Positions 20,305 through 35,935 are shown, counted from the first letter of the stretch. The stretch is DNA of 64,000 bases from a virus (IMGVR_UViG_3300005721_000046), one strand, 5' to 3'. Notes: generated by a model from the letters alone, not told the origin. Translations and numbers: made by a program.

Positions 20305-21639
20305 TTATAACGATATACCAATAATGTTTGATTGACGCATCGGATGTCTGAAATCGACATAATAACCAAGAGCATCGGCTGCGTGCTCAACACCTTTGGC
20401 TTTGTCGACTTCGCGAGATCCTTCTTTATAAGTTGTTTGTTCAAGCGAGTTGATGATACCGGAACAGTTGGCGTCAACACGCAGTCTTATTTCGCCGTTG
20501 GCGGTAAACAACAATCGATTGACCGAGTTTACGCGATCTTGCACGGCCGGATGTTTGCGCTTGAAATAAATGTTTTTAAAACCGGCTTCCCGCAAAATAT
20601 CAAGCGACGTTTCGCCACGATCATGATTACGGTTATTGCCTGCCGGGTCAGGATAGATGGAAATCTGGTTGAGATAACGATAATAGCGCCGTGATAGCTC
20701 ATCGGCGGTTTCTTGAACGTTACTTCCAAAAAGTATCGCCTCGTCAACGACCCAGATTTCACCATCTGGCTGTTCTTGCAAAACGATAGACGACATCGGG
20801 TCGATGTTAAAGTCCATGCCAATGTAAATTGGTAATTTGGGATTAAACGGATAATCACCAACGTGTTTTGTTCTATCAAACGCGTAATAGACGCGACCGC
20901 TCATATTGACGAAAGAGGCTTCAAACTCTTGAGCAAAGGATTTTGGATCCATGTCATGCCGACGGGCTTCGATTTCAGAGCGCGGCACAAAAGGAGAAGA
21001 GCTTGTGGGAAATTGCCAGGACTTCCATTCGTTCTCGATAATCTTTCCGCGACTATCTGTAATATGGTCCGGCCGCTGACCTAGCTGATAAAGATCGTAA
21101 AGCCAGTTAAAACTCTTTGGCGTACCAATGAAAATAGCCCGGCCGCGCGTTGTGGCGAGTGTCGGCTGTATAACCTCTTGCCATGTTTCTTCTTTCATGT
21201 CCTGCGCTTCGTCGAGCACAACCAGATTAAGACCTACACCACGTAAAGTATCCGGTTTATCAGCGCCTTTCAAAACAATACGTGAGCCATTGACAAACTC
21301 CATCGACATTCGAGTTTCGTTTGTCTTTTTAATCCATTGATAAGGAATAATACGTTTAAGACTATCCCACATCAGATCACGAGCCATTTGATATGTTGGT
21401 GCAATATACCAAATAAGCTGATCCGATTTTTCCGCTGAAGCCACTATAATTTCGGTCGATGAAAGCTTGGTTTTACCCCAACGTCTACCCGCCACAACAA
21501 CGCGAAAGCGATGTTTGTCCTGATAAACCTTTTTCTGTAACGAATGAAGTTTGCAGGAAAAGTTATTTAGTGTCGACGACGTCATTCTTTTCCTCAAATG
21601 ATTTAATTTCCGCAACAAGGTCGTCAGTGGTTGCGTCAA
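20305..21639 (-). CDS. terL: terminase large subunit
   Basis: Walker A 'VVAGRRWGKTKL', Walker B 'LVVLDEAQD', C-terminal nuclease region. Start may be the internal Met near 21585. Confidence 0.85.
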   Translation of the reverse strand: MTQPLTTLLRKLNHLRKRMTSSTLNNFSCKLHSLQKKVYQDKHRFRVVVAGRRWGKTKLSSTEIIVASAEKSDQLIWYIAPTYQMARDLMWDSLKRIIPYQWIKKTNETRMSMEFVNGSRIVLKGADKPDTLRGVGLNLVVLDEAQDMKEETWQEVIQPTLATTRGRAIFIGTPKSFNWLYDLYQLGQRPDHITDSRGKIIENEWKSWQFPTSSSPFVPRSEIEARRHDMDPKSFAQEFEASFVNMSGRVYYAFDRTKHVGDYPFNPKLPIYIGMDFNIDPMSSIVLQEQPDGEIWVVDEAILFGSNVQETADELSRRYYRYLNQISIYPDPAGNNRNHDRGETSLDILREAGFKNIYFKRKHPAVQDRVNSVNRLLFTANGEIRLRVDANCSGIINSLEQTTYKEGSREVDKAKGVEHAADALGYYVDFRHPMRQSNIIGISL

Positions 21640-22234
21640 GTGGTAAAGCGCCGATCTCCTTGTGATGCTTCAACAGGTCTTCGTCAGTAAGGTCTTCGAC
21701 TGTGAGCTTGGGTAATCTGTTTTCATCGACGTGTTCGTCGGCTTTAAGCACGCGTAATGTGGCTTCTACGTTATCAATAACGATACGATTATATCTATTT
21801 AACGCCTTTAAATCCGGGTCGATTGCTGAAGGAGGTCTGGACGCCTTCAGATTTTCTATAACCGTGTGTCGAGCGAGCAATAATGATTGCTTTAGAACAT
21901 TTACGGCCGTTAAACGAGTTTCTTCAATCCACTGTGCACGTTTATCCGAATAACGTTCGACGGCCGCAATGGCTGCTTTATGACCGGCGGTTGCAACTTC
22001 TGCCGCGCGAGATCCTTTTACAATTCCGGCTGATTTGAATCTTTTCGACAAAGCTTGTCGTGAAATTCCAAGATCGTTGGCAATTTCGACAAGTGAGCGC
22101 TCACCTTTTTCGTAAATATCACAGGCGTTTTGAAACTCGGCTTCGGTAAGACGTTTACCGGTGACGGTCAATGTTTCTTCGTCAAAATTTGCTTCATTTT
22201 CATCAGAATTGGGTGTCATTTGCGTATAATGCAC
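21563..22234 (-). CDS. terS: terminase small subunit with N-terminal HTH
   Basis: HTH 'LVEIANDLGISRQALSKRF'. Immediately upstream of terL and overlapping it. Confidence 0.7.
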   Translation of the reverse strand: MHYTQMTPNSDENEANFDEETLTVTGKRLTEAEFQNACDIYEKGERSLVEIANDLGISRQALSKRFKSAGIVKGSRAAEVATAGHKAAIAAVERYSDKRAQWIEETRLTAVNVLKQSLLLARHTVIENLKASRPPSAIDPDLKALNRYNRIVIDNVEATLRVLKADEHVDENRLPKLTVEDLTDEDLLKHHKEIGALPLDATTDDLVAEIKSFEEKNDVVDTK

Positions 22235-22277
22235 AAAAGCCGTGCATTTCCAGTTATTTAGCCGGAGTTTTTAACAA

Positions 22278-22370
22278 ATTTTCCCGTCCTACGCGCTGTA
22301 AATATATATATATATAATTTATTATCTAATATTAATTTCTTTACAGCGCGAAGAAGGGATAACTCTCCGG
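22278..22370 (-). promoter_or_regulatory. conserved ~90-bp element, copy 1: 11-bp inverted repeat CGCGCTGTAAA/TTTACAGCGCG (22292-22302 and 22340-22350) flanking an AT-rich (TA)n spacer, upstream of terS
   Basis: Seen directly. Near-identical second copy at 33795-33870. Confidence 0.6.
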
Positions 22371-22622
22371 TCATGGTTTAGGCCAAAAAAGTTTGTAAGA
22401 AAGATCGGTCGGAATGAGCAGAGAATAGCTTCCGGATTTTTTTCTAATCAGAACGTTGTATTTAATTAAATATCGGACGGAAATTCGTACCGCACCGTAA
22501 GAGCACTCATACGGTAATAGCTCGTGAAGTTCCCGGATATTTAAAAACTTTCCCTCACCGGCTTTTTTCAGAACAATACCCATGATGGTACGCTGCTTGT
22601 CTGTCATTCGCGGCATGTTCAT
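22371..22622 (-). CDS. small winged-helix DNA-binding protein
   Basis: 83 aa, MarR/PadR-like helix pattern. Overlaps the upstream GNAT gene by 4 nt. Confidence 0.5.
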   Translation of the reverse strand: MNMPRMTDKQRTIMGIVLKKAGEGKFLNIRELHELLPYECSYGAVRISVRYLIKYNVLIRKKSGSYSLLIPTDLSYKLFWPKP

Positions 22623-23527
22623 TGTTTTAGCCTCTCAGTCGGACTTTGACGATCAAATGCAGAAAGCGGCAAACGTGCCGGCACACTTCCTTTCGGATCC
22701 GGACATTTCCAAATTCCGTAAAGCGGTGAGGCTAAGCCGATCTGCTGAATGCCCTTGATGATTTCGCGTGCCGACATTGCTGCAACGCGACGCGCTGCAT
22801 TCGATCCGGCATTAGATGTGTTTTCCAAAGCCGAGTTGCGCATGTAGAACTGTCGACATTGTTCGATCACCAATTCGCGTTCAGTTTGAGGCTTACTATC
22901 AATCTCTGCCAATATCGCTTCGTGATCGGCCGGATTTGCCTCAAAGTTCATGCGAAAAAATTTCATGACCTTTTCGTAATTGTTCGCGTTCATCGGTTTA
23001 ACGAACCGGAAGCCCGCTTTTTGGCCGAAAGTATTATACTTCGACATCGAGGATTGAATTTCCATGAAGGTGTTACCCTCAATGCGCGACACCAAGTTCA
23101 TCATACGATAGCCTGCACCAATGCCGCGATACATCGTGTCGATCACGAAGCGAGAGATGACGCGGATATTAGCATTGATGAACTTGTATCGAGCGGTATT
23201 GGTAAAACGCGTGTCGTTTCCCGGCTTTAATTTCGGCATAACGATATGTCTCTCGCGCAGCATTCCTTTTGGCGAGCCCGTTACCAGGACACCAATCGTT
23301 TCGCCGTATAGACTTAATCGCCAAAAACGTGGGCCAACGGGTAATTTTTCAGCCTTGTAGTGAAGCTCGTGCAGGAGATTCCAGTCGTCTTTAGTGCCGC
23401 GCTCCACTATCATATCGTCTAAAAGCTTAAAAGAAGCTCGTGGAGCGTCGTTTCGTTCGAATAGAGTATCGAACATGCAGACGACGTCTGGAGCGCGTGT
23501 ATGACGCTCTGTGTTGATTTTATGCAT
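22619..23527 (-). CDS. GNAT-family N-acyltransferase with N- and C-terminal extensions
   Basis: GNAT motif A 'RVISRFVIDTMYRGIGAGYRMMNLV'. 302 aa. Confidence 0.55.
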   Translation of the reverse strand: MHKINTERHTRAPDVVCMFDTLFERNDAPRASFKLLDDMIVERGTKDDWNLLHELHYKAEKLPVGPRFWRLSLYGETIGVLVTGSPKGMLRERHIVMPKLKPGNDTRFTNTARYKFINANIRVISRFVIDTMYRGIGAGYRMMNLVSRIEGNTFMEIQSSMSKYNTFGQKAGFRFVKPMNANNYEKVMKFFRMNFEANPADHEAILAEIDSKPQTERELVIEQCRQFYMRNSALENTSNAGSNAARRVAAMSAREIIKGIQQIGLASPLYGIWKCPDPKGSVPARLPLSAFDRQSPTERLKQ

Positions 23528-23539
23528 ATTTCCTGAGTG

Positions 23540-24175
23540 CTAAATGCGTTTACAATCGACTTTTTCGCGAAAACGCTTCGTGATTGTTAAATTTGGCGCA
23601 AGTTCGTCGACAAGATCGGTATGGGTCGTCGCAACCATTAATGTTTTACCGAGACGTCTTGCAACTTTGGCTACATTGAAGGCGACGACACGGGCAGTAA
23701 CGCGATCTAAAACGGCGCCGAATTCGTCGGCAACCCATACATCAGCGCCAGACTCCATGACTTTTGCAAGTTTGAGTCGATAACGCTGACCATCAGAGAG
23801 CTCGGAAGGCTTGCGGATGTAGATCCAGGCGTCGGAAATGCCTGCCTTCGCAAGAAAATCGGTTGCTGTTACCGTGTCGTCACCAATCAATTCAATTACC
23901 GGCCTCTCCTCAAGCGTAATCGAATTGAGATCCGCGACCTTGAGACCTTCTTTGCGCATTTTGGCTACAAGGTCGCGTAGGAGAAGTGATTTACCGGATC
24001 CGGATTGACCGGTGATATAGACCACGTCTCCCTGGTTTATCGAAATCGAAAGGTTGTCATAAATAACAAATTCCTTTTCCGATAAACCTAGACCAAAGGC
24101 TTCGGCAACCTCTAGAACGCGAGGGGTTCGTTCGACTGAGCTGCGAAATCTTCGGTCAATTGTGTATGTTGTCAT
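23540..24175 (-). CDS. ABC-type ATPase (nucleotide-binding domain only)
   Basis: Walker A 'GQSGSGKS', ABC signature 'LSDGQRYRL', Walker B 'VWVADEFGAVLD', H-loop 'ATTH'. Start placed at Met 'MTTYTIDRR' (24175). The longest ORF extends to 24265. Confidence 0.65.
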   Translation of the reverse strand: MTTYTIDRRFRSSVERTPRVLEVAEAFGLGLSEKEFVIYDNLSISINQGDVVYITGQSGSGKSLLLRDLVAKMRKEGLKVADLNSITLEERPVIELIGDDTVTATDFLAKAGISDAWIYIRKPSELSDGQRYRLKLAKVMESGADVWVADEFGAVLDRVTARVVAFNVAKVARRLGKTLMVATTHTDLVDELAPNLTITKRFREKVDCKRI

Positions 24176-24186
24176 TGAATTCCCGC

Positions 24187-24576
24187 TTAACCGTTTTCGT
24201 TCATCGGGAAATAGATGTTTCCGTCCACATCGGTGTAAGGCGAGTAGATGAGAACGTCGTTGCATTCGAGACTTAAAGAGCTCAAAATCGCGCCGATAGT
24301 GCCAATTTCGGGCGAATTATATGTTTCTTTGCGAATAGCCATTTCGGTGAAGAAAAAGCCGTTTTCGACATTTCGGGCTACAATAACGACGTCGTCCATT
24401 TTACCTTCGGCAACCATGTTTCGAAGTTTATCGAGCGTTTCGATTAGATCGTTTCGCCGTTCCTCTTCTGTGACATCGATCACCGGTTTTTCGTAGTTGC
24501 TGCTATTGTTCGGAAATTTTACGACGTTATCGCTATTTGTCGTGGGAGAGTTATTATGATTATCGTTATTGTTCAT
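24187..24576 (-). CDS. hypothetical protein with Asn-rich N-terminus
   Basis: ORF tightly packed between the ParB-like gene and the ATPase gene. Confidence 0.4.
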   Translation of the reverse strand: MNNNDNHNNSPTTNSDNVVKFPNNSSNYEKPVIDVTEEERRNDLIETLDKLRNMVAEGKMDDVVIVARNVENGFFFTEMAIRKETYNSPEIGTIGAILSSLSLECNDVLIYSPYTDVDGNIYFPMNENG

Positions 24577-24578
24577 GT

Positions 24579-25271
24579 TTATTCTGCCATCACTTCCGAC
24601 GATAGAGAAGTGTCCAATATTTCGATTAAGGCATCTGGTCCTTTCTTGCCTGTCTTTGTTTCGACGCGTGACATGAGTGAGTGAATCTGACGTGACTGGG
24701 CAATTGTCACGCGTTTAAAACCGAGAGCATCAGCAACTGGCGCCATAATGTCATCGGTTGCTGCGACGTTTTCTCGGTTTTGCTCGGCTTGTTCTTCGAC
24801 CGCCGATCCTATGTCGTCGACAAAATTCAAATCGCTAATTTCGCCGAGATCTTCGATTGCAAAATTAAGTTCGTTTTCGTCAAAACCGGTATCGAAAAGA
24901 GTCAAATTGCTTTCTGTGCTGGCAAGACTTTCCTGAAGTCGTTTAAGTTCCGACGAAATCATATCCATGTCGTAAGCAACCGATGTTACGCGGTTGTCGG
25001 CAAGACGTAACGCATCTGCCTCAGCTTTGGTTAGATCGGAGCGAACAACAACCGGAACCTTTTTCAGTCCAAGTTTTAGGGCGGCCAATCGTCTACCATG
25101 ACCGATAATAATCGATCCGTCTTTCCAAACGACAATTGGCTGCGTCCATCCAAATTGCTTAATTGAATTGGCGAGCTTGGCTATTTGCTTTTCATCGTGA
25201 AGTTTGGCGTTATTCTCATACGGCTTTAGTTTTTCGATATCCCAAATCTCAGTTGGTAGGGGTTGCGACAA
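24579..25271 (-). CDS. ParB-like nuclease domain protein 1
   Basis: ParB N-terminal domain pattern 'IVVWKDGSIIIGHGRRLAALKLGLKKVPVVV'. Confidence 0.7.
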   Translation of the reverse strand: MSQPLPTEIWDIEKLKPYENNAKLHDEKQIAKLANSIKQFGWTQPIVVWKDGSIIIGHGRRLAALKLGLKKVPVVVRSDLTKAEADALRLADNRVTSVAYDMDMISSELKRLQESLASTESNLTLFDTGFDENELNFAIEDLGEISDLNFVDDIGSAVEEQAEQNRENVAATDDIMAPVADALGFKRVTIAQSRQIHSLMSRVETKTGKKGPDALIEILDTSLSSEVMAE

Positions 25272-25341
25272 TTTTTTTCTCTCCAGAATTGTATGCCGTC
25301 GCTAGTTACTTTTTTTAATTATAGCGATAAATGGCCGTCAT

Positions 25342-25998
25342 TTATTTCAGGTAAGGCATCAAAATTTGAACCAGGGCGTCACCGACGTTTGTCAGTTCGT
25401 CGGCTTCTGTGAAGCCGTATTCTTTTTGAGTGGTCGCGATAAGCGCGGTTATGCGTTCAGCGTCCGCGATAGGTACTTTAAATCGCATAATTGTGTGCGT
25501 TTTTGCAGGCTTTGCGACGGGCTCCAAATCTTCCGGTGTATCAAGTTCAGTTTCAACATCCTCCTCAAGTTCCAACATTTCTAACGCTATATTTGATGAA
25601 AAGATTTCGTTGATGTCAGATTCGCCATAAGGAAGAAAATCTTTGAGCTCGTTAGTGTCCAAAGACTTTAACAATTCGGCTAATTCAATAGCGTCGTCTG
25701 TGCCGTATCGTGCGTTGTCGGCCAAACTGATTTCTTTGGCGCGTTTGTCGTCGATACAACCAAGATTAAAAACAGGTAATTTATCCAAGCCTAGTTCGAT
25801 GGCCTGTTCCCATCGATGCTGTCCGCCGAGAATCTCGTATACGCCCTCTTCTATCTCTCGAACGATAATGGGTTTAAAAACACCATTACGTTTGAGTGAA
25901 GCGCGTATTTTGCGCTCGTTTTCGGGCGTTACTTTATTCGTATTCCATGAGTTTTTTCGGAGCTGGCTTGGCTTGAGTTCAAGAAACTGTGCTGCCAT
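25342..25998 (-). CDS. ParB-like nuclease domain protein 2
   Basis: 'IIVREIEEGVYEILGGQHRWEQAIELGLDKLPVF' ParB/Srx fold pattern. Acidic middle region like protein 1. Confidence 0.7.
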   Translation of the reverse strand: MAAQFLELKPSQLRKNSWNTNKVTPENERKIRASLKRNGVFKPIIVREIEEGVYEILGGQHRWEQAIELGLDKLPVFNLGCIDDKRAKEISLADNARYGTDDAIELAELLKSLDTNELKDFLPYGESDINEIFSSNIALEMLELEEDVETELDTPEDLEPVAKPAKTHTIMRFKVPIADAERITALIATTQKEYGFTEADELTNVGDALVQILMPYLK

Positions 25999-26090
25999 GT
26001 TGCTCTTTTTTTATAAATACCGTTATGTTATAACATAACCATATAATTTTAACCCGCATTTTGAAATAATTCAAGTAAAAAGGATATTTA

Positions 26091-27665
26091 ATGTCTCTTG
26101 TTCGTATAGCTAAGAACGCGATTTTAGCAAAATTGATTGAACCAGATCATAATATCGTTGTTTTCGTGAATAATCTTCTTTCCTATGACGTAAATGTCGG
26201 TGGAGCGTTCGGTTGGTCAGGAAAGTCATCTTTTTTTACCATGTATAACCGAACATTTCCGGCGGGCTTTGTCTATTTGGTTACGGAAGAGCTTAGTAAA
26301 GCTGGTCATGACGTCAGAATTATTCAAAGTGCGTTACCCAAACCTACAGGACCTGAAAATCCCATTGTCGATAGCTTTGGTAACGATGATCCGCGTTATG
26401 ATTATCAGATAAAAGCATTGCGACAGGTAGAAAAGTATGGCGCGGGTATTGTGCGTGTTGCAACCGGTGGCGGTAAGAGCAAGATCGCCAAATTGGTGAT
26501 GAAAAGATTTCCCGGCGTTACGCTTTTTCTGTCTACACGAGCAATTTTGCTTCGTCAGATGGATAAACAGCTCAAAGAAATCGGTATGAACACCGGAATG
26601 ATTGGCGACGGTGAAATGCATTTTGTTCCCGGCGTTAATCTTGGAATGGTGCAAACGCTCGTACAGGCTCTTGAGGAGCCAAACTTAAATAACGAAATTC
26701 TTGCAGTGATTGCCGCAGAACACAAAAAGAACAAGAAGGTTTTAACGCGTCAACAAGCCGAAAAGACTGCCAGATTAGTTTACGAGCGAAAAATTAAGCG
26801 GCGCGACGCGATAAGCAAGTTTCTTTCGATGGTTAATGTTGTCATTGGTGAAGAAGCCCATGAAGCAGGCGGCAATTCTTATTATAAAATTCTACAACAT
26901 TGTAAAAACGCGAGAATTCGCGTTGCATTAACTGCAACGCCATTCATGCGTTCTGACATGGAAGATAATATGCAGCTCATGGCCGCTTTCGGACCAATTT
27001 TGATCGACATTAGTGAGAAAATGTTGATTGATCGAGGCATTTTAGCAAAGCCTTTCTTCAAGTTTGTCGATAGTCAGCCTCATCCCAAGCTCTTTAAGAC
27101 ATCGCCATATGAACGAGCCTTGAAATATGGCTATACCGAGAACGAATTTTTGATAAATGACATGATCCGTGACGCAAAACACGCAAAATTACATGGTTTG
27201 CCGGTGTTGACGCTTGTGACGCGCAAGAAGTTTGGCGAGATTTTGCAAAAGGCTTACGAAAAAGCAGGAATTCGAGCTGTTTTTCTTAAAGGCGACGACG
27301 ATAGCGTCGAGCGGAGCGAAAAATTAAACGCTTTAGCAAGCGGAAAGATAGACGGTATTATCGGAACGACAATTTTGGATGTTGGTGTCGACGTTCCAGC
27401 GATTGGTCTTGTTCAATTAGCAGGTGGCGGTAAAGCCGAAGTAGCTCTTAGACAGCGTATAGGTCGCGGATTACGCGCGAAAAAAGGCGGACCGAATGTC
27501 GCTTTCATTGCTGATTATTCCTGCAACAAAAACACCTATCTGAGCGTTCATGCCGAGCAGCGATTTTCGATAATCAAAAACACACCCGGCTTTGCCGAAG
27601 GAATTTTGCCGAAGGGTAAGGATTTTGATTGGAATATTTTTGAAAAGTCGCTTGTTGATGCGTAA
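26091..27665 (+). CDS. superfamily-2 DNA helicase (DEAH-like)
   Basis: Motif I 'ATGGGKSK', motif II 'VIGEEAHEA', motif VI 'QRIGRGLR'. Confidence 0.8.
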   Translation: MSLVRIAKNAILAKLIEPDHNIVVFVNNLLSYDVNVGGAFGWSGKSSFFTMYNRTFPAGFVYLVTEELSKAGHDVRIIQSALPKPTGPENPIVDSFGNDDPRYDYQIKALRQVEKYGAGIVRVATGGGKSKIAKLVMKRFPGVTLFLSTRAILLRQMDKQLKEIGMNTGMIGDGEMHFVPGVNLGMVQTLVQALEEPNLNNEILAVIAAEHKKNKKVLTRQQAEKTARLVYERKIKRRDAISKFLSMVNVVIGEEAHEAGGNSYYKILQHCKNARIRVALTATPFMRSDMEDNMQLMAAFGPILIDISEKMLIDRGILAKPFFKFVDSQPHPKLFKTSPYERALKYGYTENEFLINDMIRDAKHAKLHGLPVLTLVTRKKFGEILQKAYEKAGIRAVFLKGDDDSVERSEKLNALASGKIDGIIGTTILDVGVDVPAIGLVQLAGGGKAEVALRQRIGRGLRAKKGGPNVAFIADYSCNKNTYLSVHAEQRFSIIKNTPGFAEGILPKGKDFDWNIFEKSLVDA

Positions 27666-27697
27666 GCATAGAAGGAAATAAGGAAATAGGCATATAA

Positions 27698-27737
27698 GCG
27701 AGTAAGGAAGTACGGATTTCTTTAGTTCCTTACTCGC
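27698..27737 (+). promoter_or_regulatory. 12-bp perfect inverted repeat GCGAGTAAGGAA/TTCCTTACTCGC with a 16-nt loop, directly after the helicase stop and next to GGAAATAAG repeats
   Basis: Seen directly. Possible terminator or operator. Confidence 0.45.
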
Positions 27738-27824
27738 CCCTCCCCTACCCGCGTCATTTCCGTGCATTTTCTCGCTATAAAATATTATCGACAGCAACGT
27801 TGATTAAGTGAATGCGAGGAAAAA

Positions 27825-28499
27825 ATGCAGGAAACGCCCAAAATTTTTGCTATTTGCGGTCAACCAAAGTCGGGTAAAACCACGCTTGCTCAGATGCTGA
27901 AAAACAGACTTGGCTATCAGATCATTGATGACGCTCGACCATTACGTTCAATCGCGACACAGCATTTTGGCTTATCGTTGGCCGATGTAATTACTCAGGC
28001 GGGTAAATCAAAGCAAGTCGAATTTATGGGACGTCAATGGACGGTAAGACAGATTTTGGGCGAGATCGGTAACGCGCTTGAGGATAAATTCGGTGCCGAT
28101 ATTATTCCTGAGCTTGCATATATGCAGATGTGCCGGATGATGGAGCAGAAATCAATCAAGCACTTTGTTGTACCTTCCGTAAGACGTGATCAGGGTGTCT
28201 ACTGGAAATCAAAAGGCGCGCTTGTTGTTGAGATTTGTAACCCGAACGTTCCGGAGAGTGCGTTTGAATTCGATCAATATAACAAATCGGTCATCGATAT
28301 TCGTTTAATTAATGATTTTGATCCGGAACGAATAGCGGATCCTAATCGAGAACGTCGTCGGCTTTATAATGAATTCGTTGGGCATGTTCAGAAGAAGTTT
28401 GTTAAGCAGATTCAGTCGGGTGTTTTCTGCGGCGGCGTCATTCAAAATACTCCAGAACATATGCCACAGACATTATCGTGTGACGAAAGCGTTCTGTAA
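27825..28499 (+). CDS. P-loop nucleotide kinase (dNMP kinase-like)
   Basis: Walker A 'ICGQPKSGKTT'. 224 aa. Confidence 0.55.
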   Translation: MQETPKIFAICGQPKSGKTTLAQMLKNRLGYQIIDDARPLRSIATQHFGLSLADVITQAGKSKQVEFMGRQWTVRQILGEIGNALEDKFGADIIPELAYMQMCRMMEQKSIKHFVVPSVRRDQGVYWKSKGALVVEICNPNVPESAFEFDQYNKSVIDIRLINDFDPERIADPNRERRRLYNEFVGHVQKKFVKQIQSGVFCGGVIQNTPEHMPQTLSCDESVL

Positions 28500-28609
28500 T
28501 AAGGAAATAAGCATATAGGCATCTACTTTTTTCTCTAAATAGGGAATTTCCTTGCGGTATTTGCTTATTTGGTTATGTTTAAGGCATAGATTCGTATTAG
28601 GGAATTACA

Positions 28610-29263
28610 ATGCCTTTAATCATTGCCTGTTTGTCACAAAAAGGCGGAGTGGGTAAAAGCACTCTTGCCCGACTTATTGCCAGAACCTACGCAGTCGGTG
28701 GATGGTCGGTAAAAATTGCCGACTTTAACACGACACAGTTGAGTTCGTATAATTGGGCGCAAATTCGCAACGGTGAAGGCCATAAACCAAAAATCGATTC
28801 AGAGCCTGCCACCTCGCCTTCTCTTCTCAAACGCGAAAAATATGATCTGGTTGTCGCTGATGGTCGACCGGACTCCGATCAATCAAGTTTGGAAATCGCG
28901 CGAATAGCTGATCTGATTGTTATACCAACCGGTCTACCGCTAGACGACTTGATGCCACAGTTGCGCTTTGCCAATGAGCTCGTTGAAAAAGGCATAGATC
29001 CTCAAAAAATTCTTTGGGTGCTCAACAAGATCACCGATAGCATAACTGCGGTTGCAGAGGCGCGCGATTATATTCGTCAGGATCAGGATTATCGCATCGC
29101 CGCTCAAGAGCTCATGCACAAGATCAGTTACCAGAAAGCGCAAAACCATGGACTGGCTTTATCGGAAGTTGGTCGTAAGGTTGGTTCGTTGGAAGAAAAG
29201 GCTGATCTATTGGCGGCCGAAATCGTAGAGCTTGTTACCAAGTTGACGGAGGATAAAGAATGA
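28610..29263 (+). CDS. parA: ParA/MinD-family partition ATPase
   Basis: Deviant Walker A 'SQKGGVGKST'. 217 aa (small, type Ib size). Confidence 0.8.
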   Translation: MPLIIACLSQKGGVGKSTLARLIARTYAVGGWSVKIADFNTTQLSSYNWAQIRNGEGHKPKIDSEPATSPSLLKREKYDLVVADGRPDSDQSSLEIARIADLIVIPTGLPLDDLMPQLRFANELVEKGIDPQKILWVLNKITDSITAVAEARDYIRQDQDYRIAAQELMHKISYQKAQNHGLALSEVGRKVGSLEEKADLLAAEIVELVTKLTEDKE

Positions 29264-29514
29264 CTGAAGACGTAAAAACTAGAGCAGCAGTTCCGCCGCG
29301 TTCAAACAAAAGCTTTTTGCCACACGAAATCACAGCAAAGAAAGCAGGCGCAGCAAATAACATGCGCTCGGAAAAGACCGTTAAGACGTCTTTGCTGATT
29401 ACCGAAGAGCAACATCGCGATATGCGCTTGGCACGTGTCGAGTACAATCGGCCAGTCAATGACATTCTGGTTGAAGCGTTTTACCAGTGGCTCGATCGGC
29501 AGCGTAAGAAATAA
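29260..29514 (+). CDS. small ribbon-helix-helix-like partition partner (ParG-like)
   Basis: 84 aa overlapping the parA stop by 4 nt. Basic N-terminus and C-terminal helix pair typical of RHH centromere-binding proteins. Confidence 0.5.
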   Translation: MTEDVKTRAAVPPRSNKSFLPHEITAKKAGAANNMRSEKTVKTSLLITEEQHRDMRLARVEYNRPVNDILVEAFYQWLDRQRKK

Positions 29515-29570
29515 TATCCTGGTCTTCGAGACACAAAGAAGCAAAACGGTAGATAGGTAAAGAGGGATTA

Positions 29571-29636
29571 GCGTAGATAAGGAAATAAGCATTTGCGCAT
29601 TTAGGTATACGCCTATTTAGGTACATGCTTATTTCT
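29571..29636 (+). repeat. symmetric repeat element GGAAATAAGCAT ... ATGCTTATTTCT enclosing two ATTTAGGTA(C/T)AC direct repeats
   Basis: Seen directly. Immediately downstream of the parA-RHH operon. Candidate centromere or operator. Confidence 0.5.
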
Positions 29637-30069
29637 GGTCAAACGTCAACGACGTAACTTCGCCACCTGAAAACACATCAAACTGCATTGCGATTTTTAT
29701 AGCTTCCTCGGCGTTAGCACCCATTCCAAGCGCGCCATAAGCATATTTGCAGCCAGAACCAATTGCGTAATAATCGGATGAGAGCGGACCTGATGGTGTG
29801 TAGTTATCGCAGTAATAGAACACGCCTTCTTGGGTTATATGTAATGCCGCAAAATCTGGATCGGTGTCTGGTATTTCTTCAGGTCTTGCTCCGTTATTCA
29901 ACCAGTTGGCGATTTGCTCGGAAAAGCCTGGATGCGCCGTTGTAACGCCAACGAGACTGTTATTCTTCAGCTTGTGAATCTTTAATTTGTTGCCAATTGG
30001 TGTCGCATCGCCTGAGTAGGCACGCGAGTCAGCAGCAAGCACGCCATCACGATAAACAATTGTCGTCAT
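29629..30069 (-). CDS. HslV/proteasome-beta-like N-terminal nucleophile hydrolase
   Basis: 'MTTIVYRDGV' aligns with HslV 'MTTIVSVRRNG' (Thr1 nucleophile). Lys at the HslV K33-equivalent position ('NKLKIHKL'). 'YYAIGSGCKYAYGALG' aligns with 'LIAIGSGGPYAQAAAR'. An alternative start at 30108 would add a 13-aa pro-peptide. Confidence 0.65.
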   Translation of the reverse strand: MTTIVYRDGVLAADSRAYSGDATPIGNKLKIHKLKNNSLVGVTTAHPGFSEQIANWLNNGARPEEIPDTDPDFAALHITQEGVFYYCDNYTPSGPLSSDYYAIGSGCKYAYGALGMGANAEEAIKIAMQFDVFSGGEVTSLTFDQK

Positions 30070-30180
30070 TTTAATCCATGCAATAGAGGGGAAATGCGCG
30101 CATATCATTTGCGCTTAAGGCGACCGAATTCTCAAAGTCGCTTTTGTACTTTTAATCCCAACTTTCGATAAAATCAATAA

Positions 30181-30268
30181 ATAAGGAAATAAGTGAATAG
30201 GGGAATAAGGAAATAAGCGAATAAGCGAAGAGGGGAATACGGAAATAAGGAAATAGGTAAATAGAGGA
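30181..30268 (+). repeat. array of about 9 GGAAATAAG / GGGAATAAG / CGAATAAG direct repeats
   Basis: Seen directly. Upstream of the HslV-like gene. Confidence 0.7.
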
Positions 30269-30470
30269 GGACAGAAACCTCAAGGATTGCCGGGGTTTTT
30301 TTAAAGATCGAGCAGGGGAGGTTTGGATTTGAAAGTGTCGCGGCAACTGGAGGCATCCCCGAGATGCTTATTGCGTTGGGCTAAGACTTTCGCTATAGTA
30401 TATTTATCAAGAGAACAGAAAAACAAAATATCTTGATAGTAAAACAACAATTTAATGAAAGAGAAACAAA

Positions 30471-31115
30471 ATGTCAAAAGCAAAACTTAACAAAGAAAAC
30501 AACAAAGAAAACAACAAAAAAGAAACAATCTTAAAAGTTGCTAGAACAATTGAAAACGAATACGTAAAAGCAATTGATGAACGTCTTCAATTAGCACTAG
30601 CAAAAAATGTTTGCGCTGCAAACGAGAAGAAAATGCAAAACATGAAGCGCATGTTGTCAAGTGAACGCTTGTGTAATCTTTTAAGAGATGCAAAAGTTGA
30701 CGCGAATGCATTTTCTCGTGCAATTTACGCAAGCGAAAAAGTCGTAAAATTCGCAACACAAGCAATCGCATTTGACGCGACAAAATTAAACGAAAACACG
30801 CAAGCAATCTTCAAAACTGCAATCAATTGTGCAAAAAACAACGTCGAGTTTACAAAAGATGACGCGTGCGCTTCAATAAGCAAAGATTTAAACGTTGATG
30901 AAAATAAAAAAGCGTATGTTTTTCGTAGAAACATTATTCAACAAGTTTCAACAATTGCTGCACAAAGTCAAACAAGTCTTGACGCGTTGAAAACGCTTCA
31001 CATTATTAGCGACAATGCGCAAAAGAAAAATGTCTATGACGTAAATCTTGACAGCGAATTGACAAAAGCGCTTTGCAAAAACTTTAATATCGACTTGAAT
31101 GCAAAAGCTGCATGA
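30471..31115 (+). CDS. hypothetical protein, paralog of the 32831-33640 gene
   Basis: A-rich, low-GC ORF. 'INCAKNNVEFTKDDA' aligns with 'IKCSENNVSFTQG' in the paralog. Confidence 0.5.
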   Translation: MSKAKLNKENNKENNKKETILKVARTIENEYVKAIDERLQLALAKNVCAANEKKMQNMKRMLSSERLCNLLRDAKVDANAFSRAIYASEKVVKFATQAIAFDATKLNENTQAIFKTAINCAKNNVEFTKDDACASISKDLNVDENKKAYVFRRNIIQQVSTIAAQSQTSLDALKTLHIISDNAQKKNVYDVNLDSELTKALCKNFNIDLNAKAA

Positions 31116-31828
31116 TGAAAGTCAAACGAAAGCGAGTGAATTAACTCACTCGCTTTCAAATGCAAAACCCCTACGGGGCGTCCCACGATTTCATGCGGGG
31201 CGTCCCACGATTCGACACAAATACCAAACCATGGCTACCGGATTGATTATTTCCGGAATGGCGTTCGAAACGGTTTTCAAATGGTCGTCCGTCTTTTGTC
31301 TTGAAATAATTGGCAACCAGAATGGTGTCCATGCTGAAACAATCGGAAACCGGAATTGGCAACCAGAATGGCAACCAAGTTTAGGGCTGAATCAAAATGA
31401 CCGGCACTCTAATTCAGATCCAACGGGAAACCGCTTTTATAACCATCTCCAATGGCGAATTTTTGTCAGGCATTTTGGGCGCGTTTGACCAATTTTGGAC
31501 AGGTTTTCGGCAGGTTTTTCGCTGGTTTCGGGCGGTTTTCAGGTGGTGTTGGGCGAATTTTGGTGGTGGCGGTGTCGGTTTTGGCGGTGTTGGGCGGTTT
31601 TTTTCGGCAGGTTTTCAGGCGTTTTTCAGGCGTTTTTAGGTGAAATCCACGCATCCCACGGTTTAAATCTCGCCGTTCCTAGCCGACGTGTCCATTCCCC
31701 GGAATCCAAGCAAATCCAAAACCGCAAGCTATATCTCGGCTTCTAGGAATCTTGCCATTCCCCGAATTATCCATGGTTTTTAAGAAGCGTATTGAAAAGG
31801 GCTAGAGTTTAGCTCTTTTCAATGTGTT
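31116..31828. repeat. repeat-dense non-coding region. Contains a 16-bp direct repeat GGGGCGTCCCACGATT x2 (31175-31190, 31197-31212), TTGGCAACCAGAATGG x2.5 and about 15 G-rich units with T4-5 tracts phased at about 10-11 bp (31440-31640). Candidate origin / bent DNA
   Basis: Seen directly. ORFs called here on both strands are low-complexity artefacts. Confidence 0.6.
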
Positions 31829-32137
31829 TCACTGTTGCGCTTGTGAGAACGTTAAAGCCTTTAATTCAGCGCGCTTTTGATTAAGTTGCTTAACATATCG
31901 CGCGCGTCTAAATTTCATAACATTGTAGCGTTTGTTATAAAGTTCGATTAATTCATCAACCGAGCGATTTAAAGCGCTTGCAATAAGGCGAATACGCTCA
32001 CGAGTGTTTTTAACAATCTCGCTAAGCGCGATTATGATTTTCGGTTTCTCAAAGCGTCTCGTTGCAAGAGCGACGCTTGCAGCGTTAAGCAATTCAAATT
32101 CTTCGAAAAGGCGTTCGAATGAGCTGCGAAAAGACAT
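31829..32137 (-). CDS. hypothetical protein
   Basis: 102 aa ORF. Confidence 0.4.
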   Translation of the reverse strand: MSFRSSFERLFEEFELLNAASVALATRRFEKPKIIIALSEIVKNTRERIRLIASALNRSVDELIELYNKRYNVMKFRRARYVKQLNQKRAELKALTFSQAQQ

Positions 32138-32489
32138 TTTTTTTCTCTTTCTGTTATTTGATTATCATTAAAACAAAGACAAAAAGAGCGACGATAAGCG
32201 CGATCTCTTCAATTACGTCATAAAGAACAATGCGATTAAGTTCTTTTTCATAATCAAAATGCTGTCTCATTTGTTTCTCTTTCTGTTTGTTTTTTACATT
32301 TTGATAATAGCGTTTCAGAGCGTTGAAATCTCGAGGTGTCGAACGGTGAATACGCTTGCTGATTGGCCTGAATCGGCCGGAAAAAATTGGATAACGCTGT
32401 TAATCGGCCTCAAAAAAAAACGCAGGATTAGCGGCGTTTTGGCCTAAAGGTTCCGTAGATGTTATCGGTTGGCCGGAACGCCAAGGATT

Positions 32490-32658
32490 TTAAGGAAATA
32501 TGTACATAGGCAAATAGGCCGATAAAGAAATAGGTAAATAGGGAAATAAGCACATAAGGAAAGACACACGCCCGTGGGATCAGCGGCCAAGGTGCAAGCG
32601 GCCAAGGTGTTAGTGAGGATAAAGAAATAAGGAAATAAGGAAGTAGGTAAGTAGGTAC
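32490..32658 (+). repeat. GGAAATA-type repeat arrays (two clusters) plus GCGGCCAAGGTG x2
   Basis: Seen directly, including 'GGAAATATGTACATAGG', which resembles the palindromic operator half-site. Confidence 0.6.
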
Positions 32659-32689
32659 AAAAAAAAGACGCTGACCGAAGCCAGCGTCA
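32659..32689 (-). terminator. rho-independent terminator after gene 32831-33640
   Basis: Minus-strand RNA stem GACGCUG/CAGCGUC followed by U8-9. Confidence 0.7.
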
Positions 32690-32830
32690 GTTAAGAGCGA
32701 TCAGAATAGAGAAACACAAGAATCGCCCTTGAAAAGTTTTATACAATTGAAGAAAAATTCAAAAGCATAATAATAAATTAAAGCGTCTAGTGAGCACTAG
32801 ACGCCTATGAGATATCGTTGTTGAGTTGTT

Positions 32831-33640
32831 TCATTCATGAAACATTTTAATGAGTTGACGTGTTACAGGTGTATCTTTCAAAGCGATTACATTGTCGTCA
32901 CTCTTTTCATTATTGCTAGCAATTGCATCAAAAACCTCTAATGACGCGATCATTTGCGAACGCTGCGCTTGAGCCGTTGCTTTTGAAAGGTCGTGTCGCG
33001 TCAAATAACGCGCGTCACTGTGTGAGATGCGATATTCGCGCGATAATGACGCGAGTTGCAGACCCTGTGTAAAAGATACGTTATTTTCGCTACATTTGAT
33101 CATAGAACGTATAAAACAGTTGATTGTCTTATTGCTTGAATAAAAACCTTTCAACGCACGAGCGATCTCTGCAATCTTGAAAAACGCATAGACGTTGAAA
33201 CGGTTTTTAACGCTTTGCTGTTTATTTACAAAACTCTCATTAATGTGCAATGCGACGAAAACCTGACAAATGTCGTCACTCATGAACTGATTTTTTAGAA
33301 CCGTGAGATTATTGATCATTTTCATCGTGCAATTTTCTTTTGAACGCTCATAATCGATGCGAGCGTCAAAGGCGACAGCAAAATGCATGCGCATTTCTTC
33401 AATCTTTTTTACGTCTTCGATTGCAGTAAATATGTTATTGATATCACCTGATATGCTCTCACCGATATCAACTGACTTGATTGCGTTTGTATTGTTTAAC
33501 GAGACAGTTTTAACAACCGGTGCTTTCGCGATCTCTTCTGTTGTTTTGGTCTCTTCAATCTCTTTCGCATTAAGCGCGACGGCCTGCGCTGTAATATCGT
33601 CGAAAATCGCGGTGTTCGTCATGACGTCTGCAAGGTTCAT
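32831..33640 (-). CDS. hypothetical protein, paralog of 30471-31115
   Basis: See paralog. Followed by a terminator. Confidence 0.5.
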   Translation of the reverse strand: MNLADVMTNTAIFDDITAQAVALNAKEIEETKTTEEIAKAPVVKTVSLNNTNAIKSVDIGESISGDINNIFTAIEDVKKIEEMRMHFAVAFDARIDYERSKENCTMKMINNLTVLKNQFMSDDICQVFVALHINESFVNKQQSVKNRFNVYAFFKIAEIARALKGFYSSNKTINCFIRSMIKCSENNVSFTQGLQLASLSREYRISHSDARYLTRHDLSKATAQAQRSQMIASLEVFDAIASNNEKSDDNVIALKDTPVTRQLIKMFHE

Positions 33641-33794
33641 TTTGTTTCTCTTTCTGTTTTGTTTTCGCGTTAATATTTTGATTTCATTGCGAAAAATTGT
33701 TTTACAAGAAAGACTATAGTCAAAAAAAACAAACGTGTCTCAAGGCTTATAACGGTTTGTGACGGTTTGAAATTCCGGAACTTTGAACAAAGAG

Positions 33795-33870
33795 ACGTTC
33801 CCGTCCTACACGCTGTAATATATATAATATATCTAACATTATAATATTAATTTACAGCGCGTAGGCAGGA
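33795..33870 (-). promoter_or_regulatory. conserved ~90-bp element, copy 2: IR CCTACACGCTGTAA/TTACAGCGCGTAGG (33805-33818 and 33852-33865) around an AT-rich (TA)n spacer
   Basis: Seen directly. Flanks are also shared with copy 1 ('TTCCCGTCCTAC', 'CTCCGG'). Confidence 0.6.
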
Positions 33871-33893
33871 AAGAGACATCTCCGGGCGTTCTA

Positions 33894-34745
33894 TTAGATA
33901 TCTCTAACGCACTTAAAATGCCTTAAGTGCGTTGTTAAAATCACTTCTCCTAAGAATTCGTTGAGACCCAAAATATTATAGTGCTCAACTATTAACTCGT
34001 CGGTGTCGTCACGAGCCGTTATCGCTAAAACCGAAGGAACACGGTGTTTTTCAAAAGCTAAGGCGTAATGTTCCTCTCTGTATTGCGGCTCTTTTACGGT
34101 CTTTGGGGTTTTTCGTAAAACCGTCTTCGATTGAACCGTTCGATAATAAGCGGCTTTCTGCATAACTTCGATTAAATGAGCGCGGTCGCTTTCACTTAAC
34201 TCACTTAGCTTTTTGTTTTTTTCAAATTTTGAAACGAGATCCTTGAGATCGTTGACTGTCGAAAGCTTATTCTTTTTGCAATATTCTTCTGAGGCTTCTA
34301 AAAGCGTTAATAATGTCGGATCACAACGTTGTTGACATTTGAAGTGTTCAATTTTTTCTAGTGAGGAATTTTTAAAGAATTTATTTAGCTTTTCAATCGA
34401 GATAAATTCGGCTGTTAAATCGGCGATGGCTTCCTGGGGTTTATGATGCATTTTTACAAAATAAACAGGAAATTCCATCAGGCGTGGACGGCTGATGGCG
34501 TAATAGATAGCCTCTTTCGTTTTTTCATCGAGTATTACTTCCTCAAAATAAGCTGCGTCTTTTATATTGAGCAGCGTTATGTTTGTATCCCAGTCGCCTT
34601 TTAATTTACGTCGAACGCGTCTCTTGTAGGAATCGCCGGCAGATAATATTAAATCCTCGGCTGTAACGAGATCGTAGATTTCGCAAAAATCCTCCGATTG
34701 TCTCAAGAGATCCATATAGAGAGTCGGTGACTTGCTGTCAGGCAT
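33894..34745 (-). CDS. hypothetical protein, paralog family B member 1 (two internal repeats)
   Basis: Aligns along its length with 35023-35868 ('LEKIEHFKCQQRCDPTLLTLLEASEEYCKKNKLS' versus 'EEKLQNFKCLKPCACATVFIELLKSSEEYCKEHELS'). Start chosen at the Met aligning with the paralog start. The longest ORF starts at 34841. Confidence 0.55.
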   Translation of the reverse strand: MPDSKSPTLYMDLLRQSEDFCEIYDLVTAEDLILSAGDSYKRRVRRKLKGDWDTNITLLNIKDAAYFEEVILDEKTKEAIYYAISRPRLMEFPVYFVKMHHKPQEAIADLTAEFISIEKLNKFFKNSSLEKIEHFKCQQRCDPTLLTLLEASEEYCKKNKLSTVNDLKDLVSKFEKNKKLSELSESDRAHLIEVMQKAAYYRTVQSKTVLRKTPKTVKEPQYREEHYALAFEKHRVPSVLAITARDDTDELIVEHYNILGLNEFLGEVILTTHLRHFKCVRDI

Positions 34746-34831
34746 TTGTTTATTCGCTTTCTCAATCTCAATGTGTGAATTATTGATTGAATTGTAGCGA
34801 TCAATAATAACGCCTTCAAAAGGTATCGTAA

Positions 34832-34847
34832 GGAAATACATATTTCC
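34832..34847. promoter_or_regulatory. perfect 16-bp palindrome GGAAATACATATTTCC (operator-like) within a 45-bp conserved promoter block
   Basis: Seen directly. Identical palindrome and flanks at 35936-35951. Confidence 0.6.
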
Positions 34848-35022
34848 CTATAAGCCTATTTCTGCATATGCGTAGAAGAAGGTAGATAGACTACCCGGAA
34901 GCCATGGTTTTGAGTTTATGTTCTTGGTTTTTTTGATGCGTTATATCTTGACAAAACCTTCATCAAAGACACAAAAACAGAGAAAGCTTTTTTGCTTTCT
35001 CTGTTGTCATTCTTTTACTCTA

Positions 35023-35868
35023 TTACATATATCTAAAGCATTTAAAGCATTTCATCTGCTCAGTAGTCGCGTTACTCATAAGATTACTGAACTCGAAAAC
35101 GTTATAATGTTTTTCTTCAAACTCATTTTTATGTTCAAGTAGCGATAAAACGCAAACCTCATGATTAAGAGTGCGTTCGAGATATGCAAAGGCGCGATGT
35201 CTAATGTCGTTATTTTCTTCGTCATATGAACATTCGTAAAACGCTGCATTTTTCATAATCTCGATTGCGTGATCACGATCTTCATTTAAAAACTGTTTCG
35301 TCTCGTCATATTTTTTACTGATCTTGTAAAAATCGTCATGCGTCGAAAGCTCATGCTCTTTGCAATATTCTTCAGAACTTTTTAAAAGCTCGATAAACAC
35401 AGTCGCGCATGCACAAGGTTTTAGACATTTGAAGTTTTGTAGCTTTTCTTCTGTTGCGTTTTCAAAAAACTTGTTGAACTCTTCAAGCGTAATATATTCG
35501 CATGTCAATTCAGCATATTCTTCTTCAGGTTTGTCATGAAGAATTGAACGATAGATACATGAAGGTCTATCATCGTTTTCGTGATAGCAAAAAGAATAAT
35601 AAATAACTTCATGTGTTTCTTTATTAATTGATTGCGCTTCATAATAAGCAGCTTCAATCATGAAAGACAGATCTGTCTCGAACTGACCGTAAGAGTAACC
35701 GTACTCATCATTTTCGTCATCAGAGTGCGTAAAAACTTCATGATGTTGTTTTTGATCTTCTACGTAATGAACTAATTCATCATAGTCAGTTAAATTATGC
35801 TGCACGCAAAACTTTTGAGACTTTTTCAAGAGTGCTAAATATTTAGTATCAGACATTTGCTCATTCAC
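35023..35868 (-). CDS. hypothetical protein, paralog family B member 2 (two internal repeats)
   Basis: See member 1. The internal duplication is visible ('KKSQKFCVQHNLTDYDELV' and 'KSSEEYCKEHELSTHDDFY'). Confidence 0.55.
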   Translation of the reverse strand: MNEQMSDTKYLALLKKSQKFCVQHNLTDYDELVHYVEDQKQHHEVFTHSDDENDEYGYSYGQFETDLSFMIEAAYYEAQSINKETHEVIYYSFCYHENDDRPSCIYRSILHDKPEEEYAELTCEYITLEEFNKFFENATEEKLQNFKCLKPCACATVFIELLKSSEEYCKEHELSTHDDFYKISKKYDETKQFLNEDRDHAIEIMKNAAFYECSYDEENNDIRHRAFAYLERTLNHEVCVLSLLEHKNEFEEKHYNVFEFSNLMSNATTEQMKCFKCFRYM

Positions 35869-35935
35869 TTTCTTTGTTAATTAATTGAACAATAAAGTTA
35901 TAGCGACGAGCAAAAGCGCCTTCAAAAGGCTTCGT

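Follow-up and report, generated by a model that had tools for sequence, protein, structure and literature searches.

The virus sequence IMGVR_UViG_3300005721_000046, analysed here as a stretch of 64,000 nucleotides (the window), contains the same long inverted repeat twice, once ahead of a small-terminase-like (TerS-like) gene and once ahead of a 269-aa gene, and the question raised by this locus is what such an element does at these two places. Judged from its sequence, the window belongs to a siphovirus or phage-plasmid of the SSU5 supergroup: its TerL is 73% identical to those of the Rhizobium phages V1VFA-S, B1VFA and RHph_X66 and about 55% identical to those of Salmonella phage SSU5 and the SSU5-type phage-plasmids of Klebsiella and E. 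coli, and it matches more than 2,000 phage records with an identity below 60%. The element is real, strongly conserved and previously undescribed. It is read here, tentatively and with a probability of roughly 40%, as a cis-acting, protein-bound DNA control site at the 5' end of major transcription units of the SSU5-supergroup phage-plasmids; in the window, copy 1 (site A) heads the structural and packaging operon, and copy 2 (site C) heads a block whose first gene is the conserved 269-aa gene.

The two copies of this nested palindrome have the same orientation, with copy 1 at 22262-22370 and copy 2 at 33775-33885, and all genes neighbouring them lie on the minus strand. Each copy is composed of a short outer inverted repeat (CCGGAG or CCGGAA with CTCCGG), two arms of about 20 nt and an A+T centre. 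Copy 1 (minus strand; delimited by alignment, pattern scan, folds and comparison with relatives) follows the winged-helix stop codon directly and leaves about 43 nt to the ATG of the TerS-like gene, the order on the sense strand being 83-aa winged-helix gene, stop codon, CCGGAG, gene-distal arm, A+T centre, gene-proximal arm (...GTAGGACGGGA), CTCCGG and TerS-like gene. The gene-proximal arm (22282-22302, minus strand) reads TTTACAGCGCGTAGGACGGGA on the sense strand and includes the conserved motif GGACGGGA. The centre (22303-22339) is about 37 nt long with 97% A+T and contains a (TA)n run, the length of which varies among the close relatives L002, L003 and L004. The gene-distal arm (22340-22359, minus strand TCCCTTCTTCGCGCTGTAAA) is imperfect in the window and perfect in L002 and L003. 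The halves of the outer repeat, CCGGAG at 22262-22267 and CTCCGG at 22365-22370 (the latter abutting the winged-helix stop codon), pair with each other in the predicted folds. Copy 2 (minus strand) lies between a 315-aa gene and the 269-aa gene and comprises a gene-proximal arm (33799-33818, minus strand TTACAGCGTGTAGGACGGGA), a centre of 33 nt with 94% A+T (33819-33851) and an imperfect gene-distal arm (33852-33871, minus strand TTCCTGCCTACGCGCTGTAA). Its outer repeat, read from the sequence, is CCGGAA at 33775-33780 and CTCCGG at 33880-33885, which extends copy 2 to 33885, beyond the end at 33870 given in the initial annotation.

The pattern CGCTGTAA-N30-60-TTACAGCG was found exactly twice in the 64 kb and not once in 100 shuffles, and exact matches to TTCCCGTCCTAC in the window start at 22281 and 33798 only. 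When the window was scanned for AT-rich spacers between arms of 18 nt or more, the two copies and one short terminator-like hairpin at 58361 were obtained; a third copy or half-copy was not found in the 64 kb. In the pairwise alignment the copies match in the arms and in both flanks, beyond the TA run, and the predicted hairpins of both are much more stable than those of shuffled sequences (z scores of -3.2 to -7.0, folded as DNA or as RNA). The initial annotation had thus rightly reported an inverted-repeat element at these two places, with a similarity that is not confined to TA repeats. The arms, AT spacer and flanks that it described are indeed shared, but the arms are about 20 nt long and not 11 nt as quoted, since the supposed flank TTCCCGTCCTAC pairs with GTAGG(C)AGGAA across the centre and is part of an arm.

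Regarding the copy next to the TerS-like gene (site A), the search of related phages revealed a palindrome of like design between the winged-helix and TerS-like genes in 14 of 14 relatives. It is present in metagenomic relatives (L001 to L011, including a contig of Chelativorans composti), in the Rhizobium phages V1VFA-S, B1VFA and RHEph10, in Klebsiella pJN2-26 and in SSU5, and it is weakest in Pseudomonas phage nickie. Across these relatives, whose TerS-like proteins are from 92% down to about 30% identical, the arms are 17-26 nt long, usually with 0-2 mismatches, and the centres measure 16-46 nt with an A+T content of at least about 80%, nickie excepted. The element begins 0-10 nt past the upstream stop codon and, in the window as in every relative, stands 43-110 nt ahead of the TerS-like start. 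Loci reaching 10 kb to either side of terS in eight relatives contained site A only. In SSU5 the palindrome straddles the ends of the GenBank record: NC_018843.1 was opened inside the A+T centre (L018 1-25 together with L019 2960-3000), as was the Cyrano record modelled on it, so that the element is split and invisible in the linear record, and annotators should be warned that this reference record opens in the middle of an element. Megablast of window positions 20-36 kb against phage records gave no match, nor did the exact arm pattern against IMG/VR; all 54 matches of a metagenome scan with TTACAGCGNNNNGGACGGGAA were due to chance, none having the AT centre or a second arm. No Rfam family matched the window at the gathering threshold (matches to L015 and L018 were at chance level only), and no paper mentioning the element was found in the searchable literature.

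The outer part of the arms (TCCCGTCC / GGACGGGA; TCCCG.../...CGGGA) is semi-conserved across lineages, and the inner part is wholly different between lineages and still complementary. A register-anchored alignment was built from 18 arm pairs of 11 lineages (198 cells). Standard base pairs made up 96% of the cells, a percentage that is biased upward by the choice of arms for their complementarity, and eight cells were mismatched. Changes had occurred on both sides in 16 of the 18 arm pairs, 70 cells being changed on both sides; the observed values were matched by none of 500 shuffles, and pairing fell to 37-48% when the partner arm was slid by one to three columns. G-U cells were rare (3 of 198), and one change was one-sided. 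Given the diversity of the arm sequences, the covariation of the arms is a robust result despite the selection bias.

Two smaller features accompany site A. A small hairpin is located just before the TerS-like start codon in the window (22227-22249, minus-strand sense ATGCACGGCTTTTGTGCAT), and L006 has a different but also palindromic sequence (ATGCGTCGCGACGCAT) at the equivalent position; this is possibly a second conserved structure of the leader. In the alphaproteobacterial-type relatives two occurrences of (G)CTCCGG, or of a closely similar motif, lie downstream of site A (L001 2890-2925, L009 around 9950-9990, L011 around 9935-9975, B1VFA 54345-54385). The distance between them is about 21-22 nt, or two helical turns, as if these motifs were further putative protein-binding sites.

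With site A included, three near-complete copies in direct orientation were found in SSU5, at the record junction, at 33458-33513 and at 78304-78360, and the same three full copies in pJN2-26, with spacings of 25-45 kb in both. The SSU5 copy at 33458-33513 lies upstream of SSU5_038 and of the DnaB and primase genes. B1VFA and V1VFA-S carry the full palindrome at site A and two partial copies, which keep the AT centre, the gene-proximal arm (17 of 19 positions identical to site A) and a downstream YTCCGG and have lost the distal arm. In B1VFA one of them, at 84.1 kb, precedes phoH, a phrog_2500 gene and the primase/helicase genes, and the other, at 40.0 kb, precedes B1VFA_058. The Nickievirus phages have the site A copy only. 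Since SSU5_038 and B1VFA_116 both belong to phrog_2500, the copies before them are orthologous (site B); this site precedes phrog_2500 genes in SSU5, pJN2-26 and B1VFA. The 269-aa gene of the window (32831-33640, minus strand) is homologous to B1VFA_058 (28% identity, E = 3e-28), and copy 2 therefore corresponds to site C, an old conserved position, also occupied in the close relatives L012, L013 and L014. The gene, which had been taken for an accessory gene, is thus conserved down to a Rhizobium phage. In each case it is the gene after the element that is conserved and the one before it that varies, and the element is therefore assigned to the 5' side of the block that follows it. No third copy was found in the window phage's own clade, in which the contigs reached via a tail protein of the window extend to about 3.4 kb past its start and carry no copy.

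These positions bear on whether the element does anything for the phage at all. A miniature inverted-repeat mobile element, or a quasi-palindrome kept by templated correction, would be functionless, and its terminal inverted repeats, its occurrence in more than one copy, a possible 8-bp direct repeat (GTCTCTTT) flanking copy 2 and an arm-to-arm homogenisation that could be purely mechanistic would all agree with this. Such a repeat would, however, hardly hold orthologous positions in gamma- and alphaproteobacterial phages whose TerS-like proteins are only about 30-50% identical; moreover, the 64 kb contain no other copies, the metagenome scan gave no true matches and copy 1 has no comparable flanking duplication, so that a selfish or neutral repeat is very improbable. 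A miniature inverted-repeat transposable element in the strict sense was rejected, as the positions are orthologous across distant relatives and a flanking repeat is possible at copy 2 only.

A control site is favoured because the element accompanies the genes that follow it and is placed where the major gene blocks begin. From these observations we infer an action through a bound protein, as follows. The arms of about 20 bp would be inverted recognition sites for a small phage-encoded DNA-binding protein, which, sitting on both arms, would bracket and probably bend or loop the A+T-only centre. The centre would serve as an easily melted or bent segment from which, or beside which, transcription of the downstream operon would be switched on or off. 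The minimal functional unit would consist of the AT centre and the gene-proximal arm, and the full dyad may provide cooperative binding at the terS site. The prime candidate for the binder would be the winged-helix protein encoded just upstream of site A, followed by the TerS-like protein with its invariant helix-turn-helix (HTH).

The 83-aa protein (phrog_900; 22371-22622, minus strand) is always encoded immediately upstream of site A; in SSU5 the winged-helix protein is SSU5_130 and the TerS-like protein SSU5_001. Its AlphaFold2 model is a confident winged helix with a predicted local distance difference test score (pLDDT) of 90, and among its Foldseek neighbours are AF1382, STIV F93, BlaI/MecI, ArsR, MarR and the centromere binders AspA and TubR. 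Winged-helix proteins of the MarR, BlaI, ArsR and TubR kind bind dyad sites as dimers, and on the basis of its model the 83-aa protein is the likeliest putative binder of the element. The initially annotated placement of copy 1, between a winged-helix gene and a TerS-like gene at the head of the structural operon, was confirmed. The TerS-like protein (phrog_867; 21563-22219, minus strand) is encoded by the first gene after site A, which overlaps the start of TerL. In its model a three-helix HTH at the N-terminus precedes a long helical hairpin; the recognition helix hardly varies among relatives. Foldseek of this model against the PDB gave nothing significant (Sf6 TerS at rank 8, E = 1), and the label 'TerS' consequently derives from position and architecture; sequence searches of the PDB with both proteins gave no useful match. 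In favour of a control site, the candidate recognition helices are conserved in the lineages that share the outer arm motif TCCCG.../...CGGGA.

Several observations weigh against a protein-bound control site. A simple operator would not usually have arms as long as about 20 bp with 20-46 bp between them, and gene blocks that would normally differ in temporal class (structural, replication and others) all have this element at their head. Matches to sigma-70-type promoters in both copies were at the level of shuffles (the sigma-70 consensus may not be that of the host), and a TTGAGA hexamer 15-17 nt before TATAAA at sites 1 and 3 of SSU5 is not conserved in pJN2-26. Finally, pJN2-26 and SSU5 differ by compensatory arm changes that are private to a site, namely CCTGTTTC/GAAACAGG at site 2 and CTTTCG/CGAAAG as opposed to CTTCCG/CGGAAG of SSU5 at site 3, which argues for pairing between the arms (hairpin or cruciform) or for templated correction of a quasi-palindrome, as one shared reader protein would not require such changes. 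The late promoter or activator site proposed in the initial annotation therefore stands in part: a regulatory role is favoured by the comparative data, but no promoter above chance was found, and 'late' is too narrow for an element that also heads the replication block in relatives.

The partial copies of B1VFA, which keep one arm without its partner, speak for sequence-specific, oriented recognition rather than for a mere hairpin, and the evidence on structure and on sequence thus cuts both ways. On the structural side, the palindromes may act as DNA structures, the AT centre melting under supercoiling and the arms extruding as a hairpin or cruciform that would be recognised by a phage protein (winged-helix, TerS-like or ParB-like nuclease). 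The element could then be a hairpin promoter as in phage N4, or a structure-specific nicking or loading site splitting the genome of about 100 kb into three domains, and the site-wise compensatory changes and strict Watson-Crick symmetry would reflect selection for extrusion; the chance of this is judged to be small.

The dyad could also exert its effect in RNA. Read-through from the upstream gene would place the stem in the mRNA, where it might be an RNase III site like the R sites of T7, a stabiliser of the 3' end or an antitermination element like put of HK022. An element that begins 0-10 nt past the upstream stop codon leaves no room for an upstream promoter, and minimal RNase III substrates are matched by stems of 18-22 bp, the size of those seen here. 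The sense-strand RNA folds of the two copies have 18-22 paired positions with energies of -37.5 and -43.5 kcal/mol and RNA fold z scores of -4.4 to -7.0, and in the clade of the window phage the sense strand folds better than the antisense strand by 3-11 kcal/mol; the compensatory changes specific to each site fit as well. However, the advantage of the sense strand is weak and inconsistent across lineages (seen in 15 of 22 elements, with a mean of -1.7 kcal/mol and a reversal to +10.3 at SSU5 site 3), and the scarcity of G-U cells and the single one-sided change in the arm alignment would speak against an RNA role. The lack of a consistent strand asymmetry, together with the near absence of G-U pairs, favours a dyad at the DNA level. 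In B1VFA, furthermore, the secondary copies have no stem and one nearly intact arm, and its site C has no upstream gene from which read-through could come. An Rfam match is lacking, as noted above, and an intrinsic terminator was rejected since the U-tract is missing; there was no terminator call on the main stem, the loop measures 33-37 nt and the 3' flank is AAAATTTG / ACGTCTC. An RNA-level hairpin is accordingly considered rather improbable.

The position of site A next to the small-terminase gene brings in DNA packaging. Site A might be a docking site for TerS, comparable to cosB (R3-I1-R2) of lambda or to a pac site, with TerS, the winged-helix protein or both binding the arms on either side of a bent AT-rich spacer and recruiting TerL, and with the other copies as secondary or decoy sites. 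The palindrome stands immediately upstream of the TerS-like gene in every relative, including the single-copy Nickievirus phages, the TerS-like protein combines an N-terminal HTH with a helical hairpin and a nearly invariant recognition helix, genes with ParB-like nuclease domains occur in the same upstream block, and the SSU5 record was opened within the AT centre of site A. A cos site adjoins the small-terminase gene, as site A does, but is single in its genome and coincides with the ends of the virion DNA; the element has two copies in the window and three each in SSU5 and pJN2-26, where cutting at all of these near-identical full copies would give sub-genomic products. The record start in the palindrome of SSU5 is ambiguous as to virion ends. 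Contigs from Logan and ENA continue unbroken through the palindrome, and the assignment of TerS was made from position and architecture only.

Direct terminal repeats of 3,605 bp in B1VFA, which has fixed ends, and of 3,939 bp in V1VFA-S have been reported (PMC12509600), one Nickievirus has been reported as 'DTR (long)', i.e. with a long direct terminal repeat (PMC11256456), and the TerL of another was grouped with those of 3' cos phages (PMC8537276). For placing the repeat, B1VFA and V1VFA-S were mapped onto each other base by base and searched for 3,605-bp segments of B1VFA whose homologue measures 3,939 ± 2 bp. The only fitting starts are 39,631-39,808, by which indel arithmetic the repeat is placed at 39.63-43.41 kb; this region (39631-43413) is gene-poor and contains site C and B1VFA_058-061. 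Site C of B1VFA (40.02-40.11 kb) lies 0.2-0.4 kb inside the left end so placed, with no gene upstream, and transcription of the downstream genes must therefore start at or after site C. No palindrome was found at either deduced boundary of the B1VFA repeat, and a repeat boundary at a palindrome was rejected, as none of six placements (three sites, two directions) gave the repeat length of V1VFA-S. Site A of B1VFA, at 54.3 kb, is about 14.5 kb from the deduced repeat and hence, by this placement, unlikely to be a cut site in B1VFA. The packaging role that the initial annotation had offered as an alternative is weakened by this distance but keeps weight, and a packaging recognition site is judged unlikely though worth retaining; for the recombination site named alongside it there was no support.

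Five to six CCTTTACA motifs, present in either orientation, are clustered in B1VFA (MT770738.1) at 39113-39310 and in V1VFA-S at 20449-20650, a few hundred bp before the deduced start of the repeat. The cluster begins exactly where the homology between B1VFA and V1VFA-S resumes and is iteron-like in appearance.

Replication has to be considered because of the copy that stands directly upstream of the DnaB/primase block in SSU5, pJN2-26 and B1VFA. In an origin or DNA-unwinding element, inverted initiator sites would flank an A+T unwinding centre, as in oriS and oriL of herpes simplex virus or in papovavirus core origins, possibly with cruciform formation, and several such origins would serve lytic replication. 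With its GC-containing arms on either side of a (TA)n-rich centre of almost pure A+T, the dyad has this form, its Watson-Crick symmetry is strict and concerns both strands, and a helicase, a primase, a polymerase and SbcC-like and RuvC-like nucleases are all encoded by the phages themselves. The cumulative GC skew of SSU5 and B1VFA, however, is monotonic, without an inflection at any copy, and the skew minimum of the window at 22-26 kb is confounded by a coinciding switch of the gene strand; as a test for an origin the skew is uninformative. No initiator gene is consistently adjacent, the Nickievirus phages carry the terS copy only, and spacers of 20-46 nt disfavour cruciform extrusion unless they are self-complementary. 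An origin is considered improbable. A protelomerase target (telRL) was rejected, as the centres in the window are not self-complementary and no protelomerase was present among the annotated open reading frames (ORFs) of the window, not every ORF having been scanned. The two ParB_N genes upstream, together with the modelled winged-helix fold like that of AspA and TubR, are no more than suggestive of a plasmid centromere (P1 parS type or dispersed N15 type); the Nickievirus phages keep site A as well.

As a cis-acting dyad the element is of a familiar kind; its dimensions, nested symmetry, pure A+T core and layout of two to three copies across the supergroup are unfamiliar. The small-terminase gene Nu1 of lambda is directly preceded by cosB (R3-I1-R2), the region bound by the small terminase subunit, in which a bendable spacer lies between inverted binding elements, each about 16-20 bp long. 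The likeness lies in the two inverted elements around a spacer upstream of the small terminase and in the winged-helix/HTH protein encoded next to the site, binding being assumed here by analogy; the differences lie in the two to three copies per genome, the deduced ends of B1VFA at a distance of about 14.5 kb from site A, the lack of an identified cosN-like cut site and the pure A+T spacer without a consensus for integration host factor. Dyad-symmetric activator sites of late promoters, such as the C sites of Mu and the Ogr/B sites of P2 and 186 (TGT-N12-ACA), and the operators of phage-plasmid repressor systems with several operators, such as the C1 operators of P1, likewise occur in few copies at the heads of operons, with arms broadly alike within a genome and differing more between clades and with a small DNA-binding gene before the first late operon. 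Compared with these, the arms of the present element are longer (about 20 bp) and farther apart (20-46 bp), there is no recognisable core promoter, a replication block is headed as well, and the copies within a genome have compensatory changes of their own.

The RNase III hairpins of T7 (R0.3 to R18.5) are similar as intergenic hairpins of about 20 bp that directly follow a stop codon at boundaries of gene blocks and occur in several related copies; the present element differs in having no consistent strand asymmetry, hardly any G-U pairs, no internal loop and some copies without a stem. With oriS and oriL of herpesviruses and other viral dyad origins it shares inverted recognition arms around an A+T centre and the presence of several copies, but here neither a skew or other replication signal nor an initiator was identified, and the link to terS would be unexplained. 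The IRC-spacer-IRD elements of T5 (10.1101/866236) are also inverted repeats around a fixed spacer, present twice per genome in or near the long terminal repeat; their sequences are unrelated to that of the present element, in which visual inspection showed no DnaA boxes, and the T5 copies are mutually inverted.

The control site that is preferred here would matter for a widespread group. SSU5-type phage-plasmids are common in Enterobacteriaceae, where they carry resistance genes, and are also found in rhizobia and pseudomonads. To our knowledge, hardly anything has been learned about the activation of their lytic genes or about the recognition of their DNA in packaging. An element of about 100 bp that marks the border between winged-helix and terminase genes and keeps its place, symmetry and base composition throughout the group offers a handle on the control of lytic genes and packaging, and with at most three defined sites per genome and two adjacent candidate binders its role is readily testable.

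The order of the genes around site A was alike in all relatives fetched: helicase, followed by two ParB_N genes, a small gene, an ABC-like ATPase gene and genes of about 300 aa and about 83 aa, followed by the TerS-like gene (phrog_867, HTH), TerL and portal, the last three of which also stand below copy 1. In L003 (12021-14942) and L004 (12021-14930), two contigs of a 92%-identical relative, a truncated portal gene and then a ShlB/POTRA two-partner-secretion gene come after TerL; this reflects either an assembly chimera or a prophage that has decayed in a Gram-negative host. Anti-defence genes (Acb2/Tad1-hairpin and Tad2-like) were observed near the ParA block or inside the ParB-to-terS block in L008 (1734-2290), L010 (1253-1534 and 8187-8480) and L011 (326-643 and 8063-8386); the window phage has none at these positions. 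Elsewhere in the window are genes for a RuvC-like resolvase (61475-62044) and an SbcC-like nuclease subunit (62598-63797), both relevant to a genome that maintains long palindromes, and an integrase-like gene on the opposite strand (49142-50239, plus strand). The two genes upstream of copy 2 (33894-34841 and 35023-35868) are paralogues (30% identity, E = 2e-37), each with a 92-nt upstream repeat (34792-34883 and 35898-35989); neither could be assigned to a known family, and B1VFA lacks equivalents at this position.

Several other repeats were observed in the window. Arrays of an 8-bp unit (ATAAGGAA and variants) occur at 27655-27724, 28499-28525, 29577-29603, 30158-30283, 32483-32660 and 34841-34874 and, inverted, at 46047-46094; they fill the intergenic regions around a ParA-like gene (28610-29263) and its 84-aa partner, are also found elsewhere, and look like iterons or a type Ib centromere/operator array. 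About 7-10 tandem copies of a 10-bp TTCGTTCTTA-like unit are located in a gene-poor region (36445-36572) upstream of the two paralogous genes. A tandem gene duplication (41887-42600 and 42726-43448) has a DNA identity of about 73-81% over about 600 nt, and the second member has no PHROG match. Six copies of a box of about 50-76 nt stand upstream of minus-strand genes (39427-39502, 40553-40628, 41804-41879, 42642-42717, 43750-43825 and 55118-55193); each minus-strand copy ends in ...GCTATAATA, and the copies probably form a family of early promoters whose upstream region is conserved.

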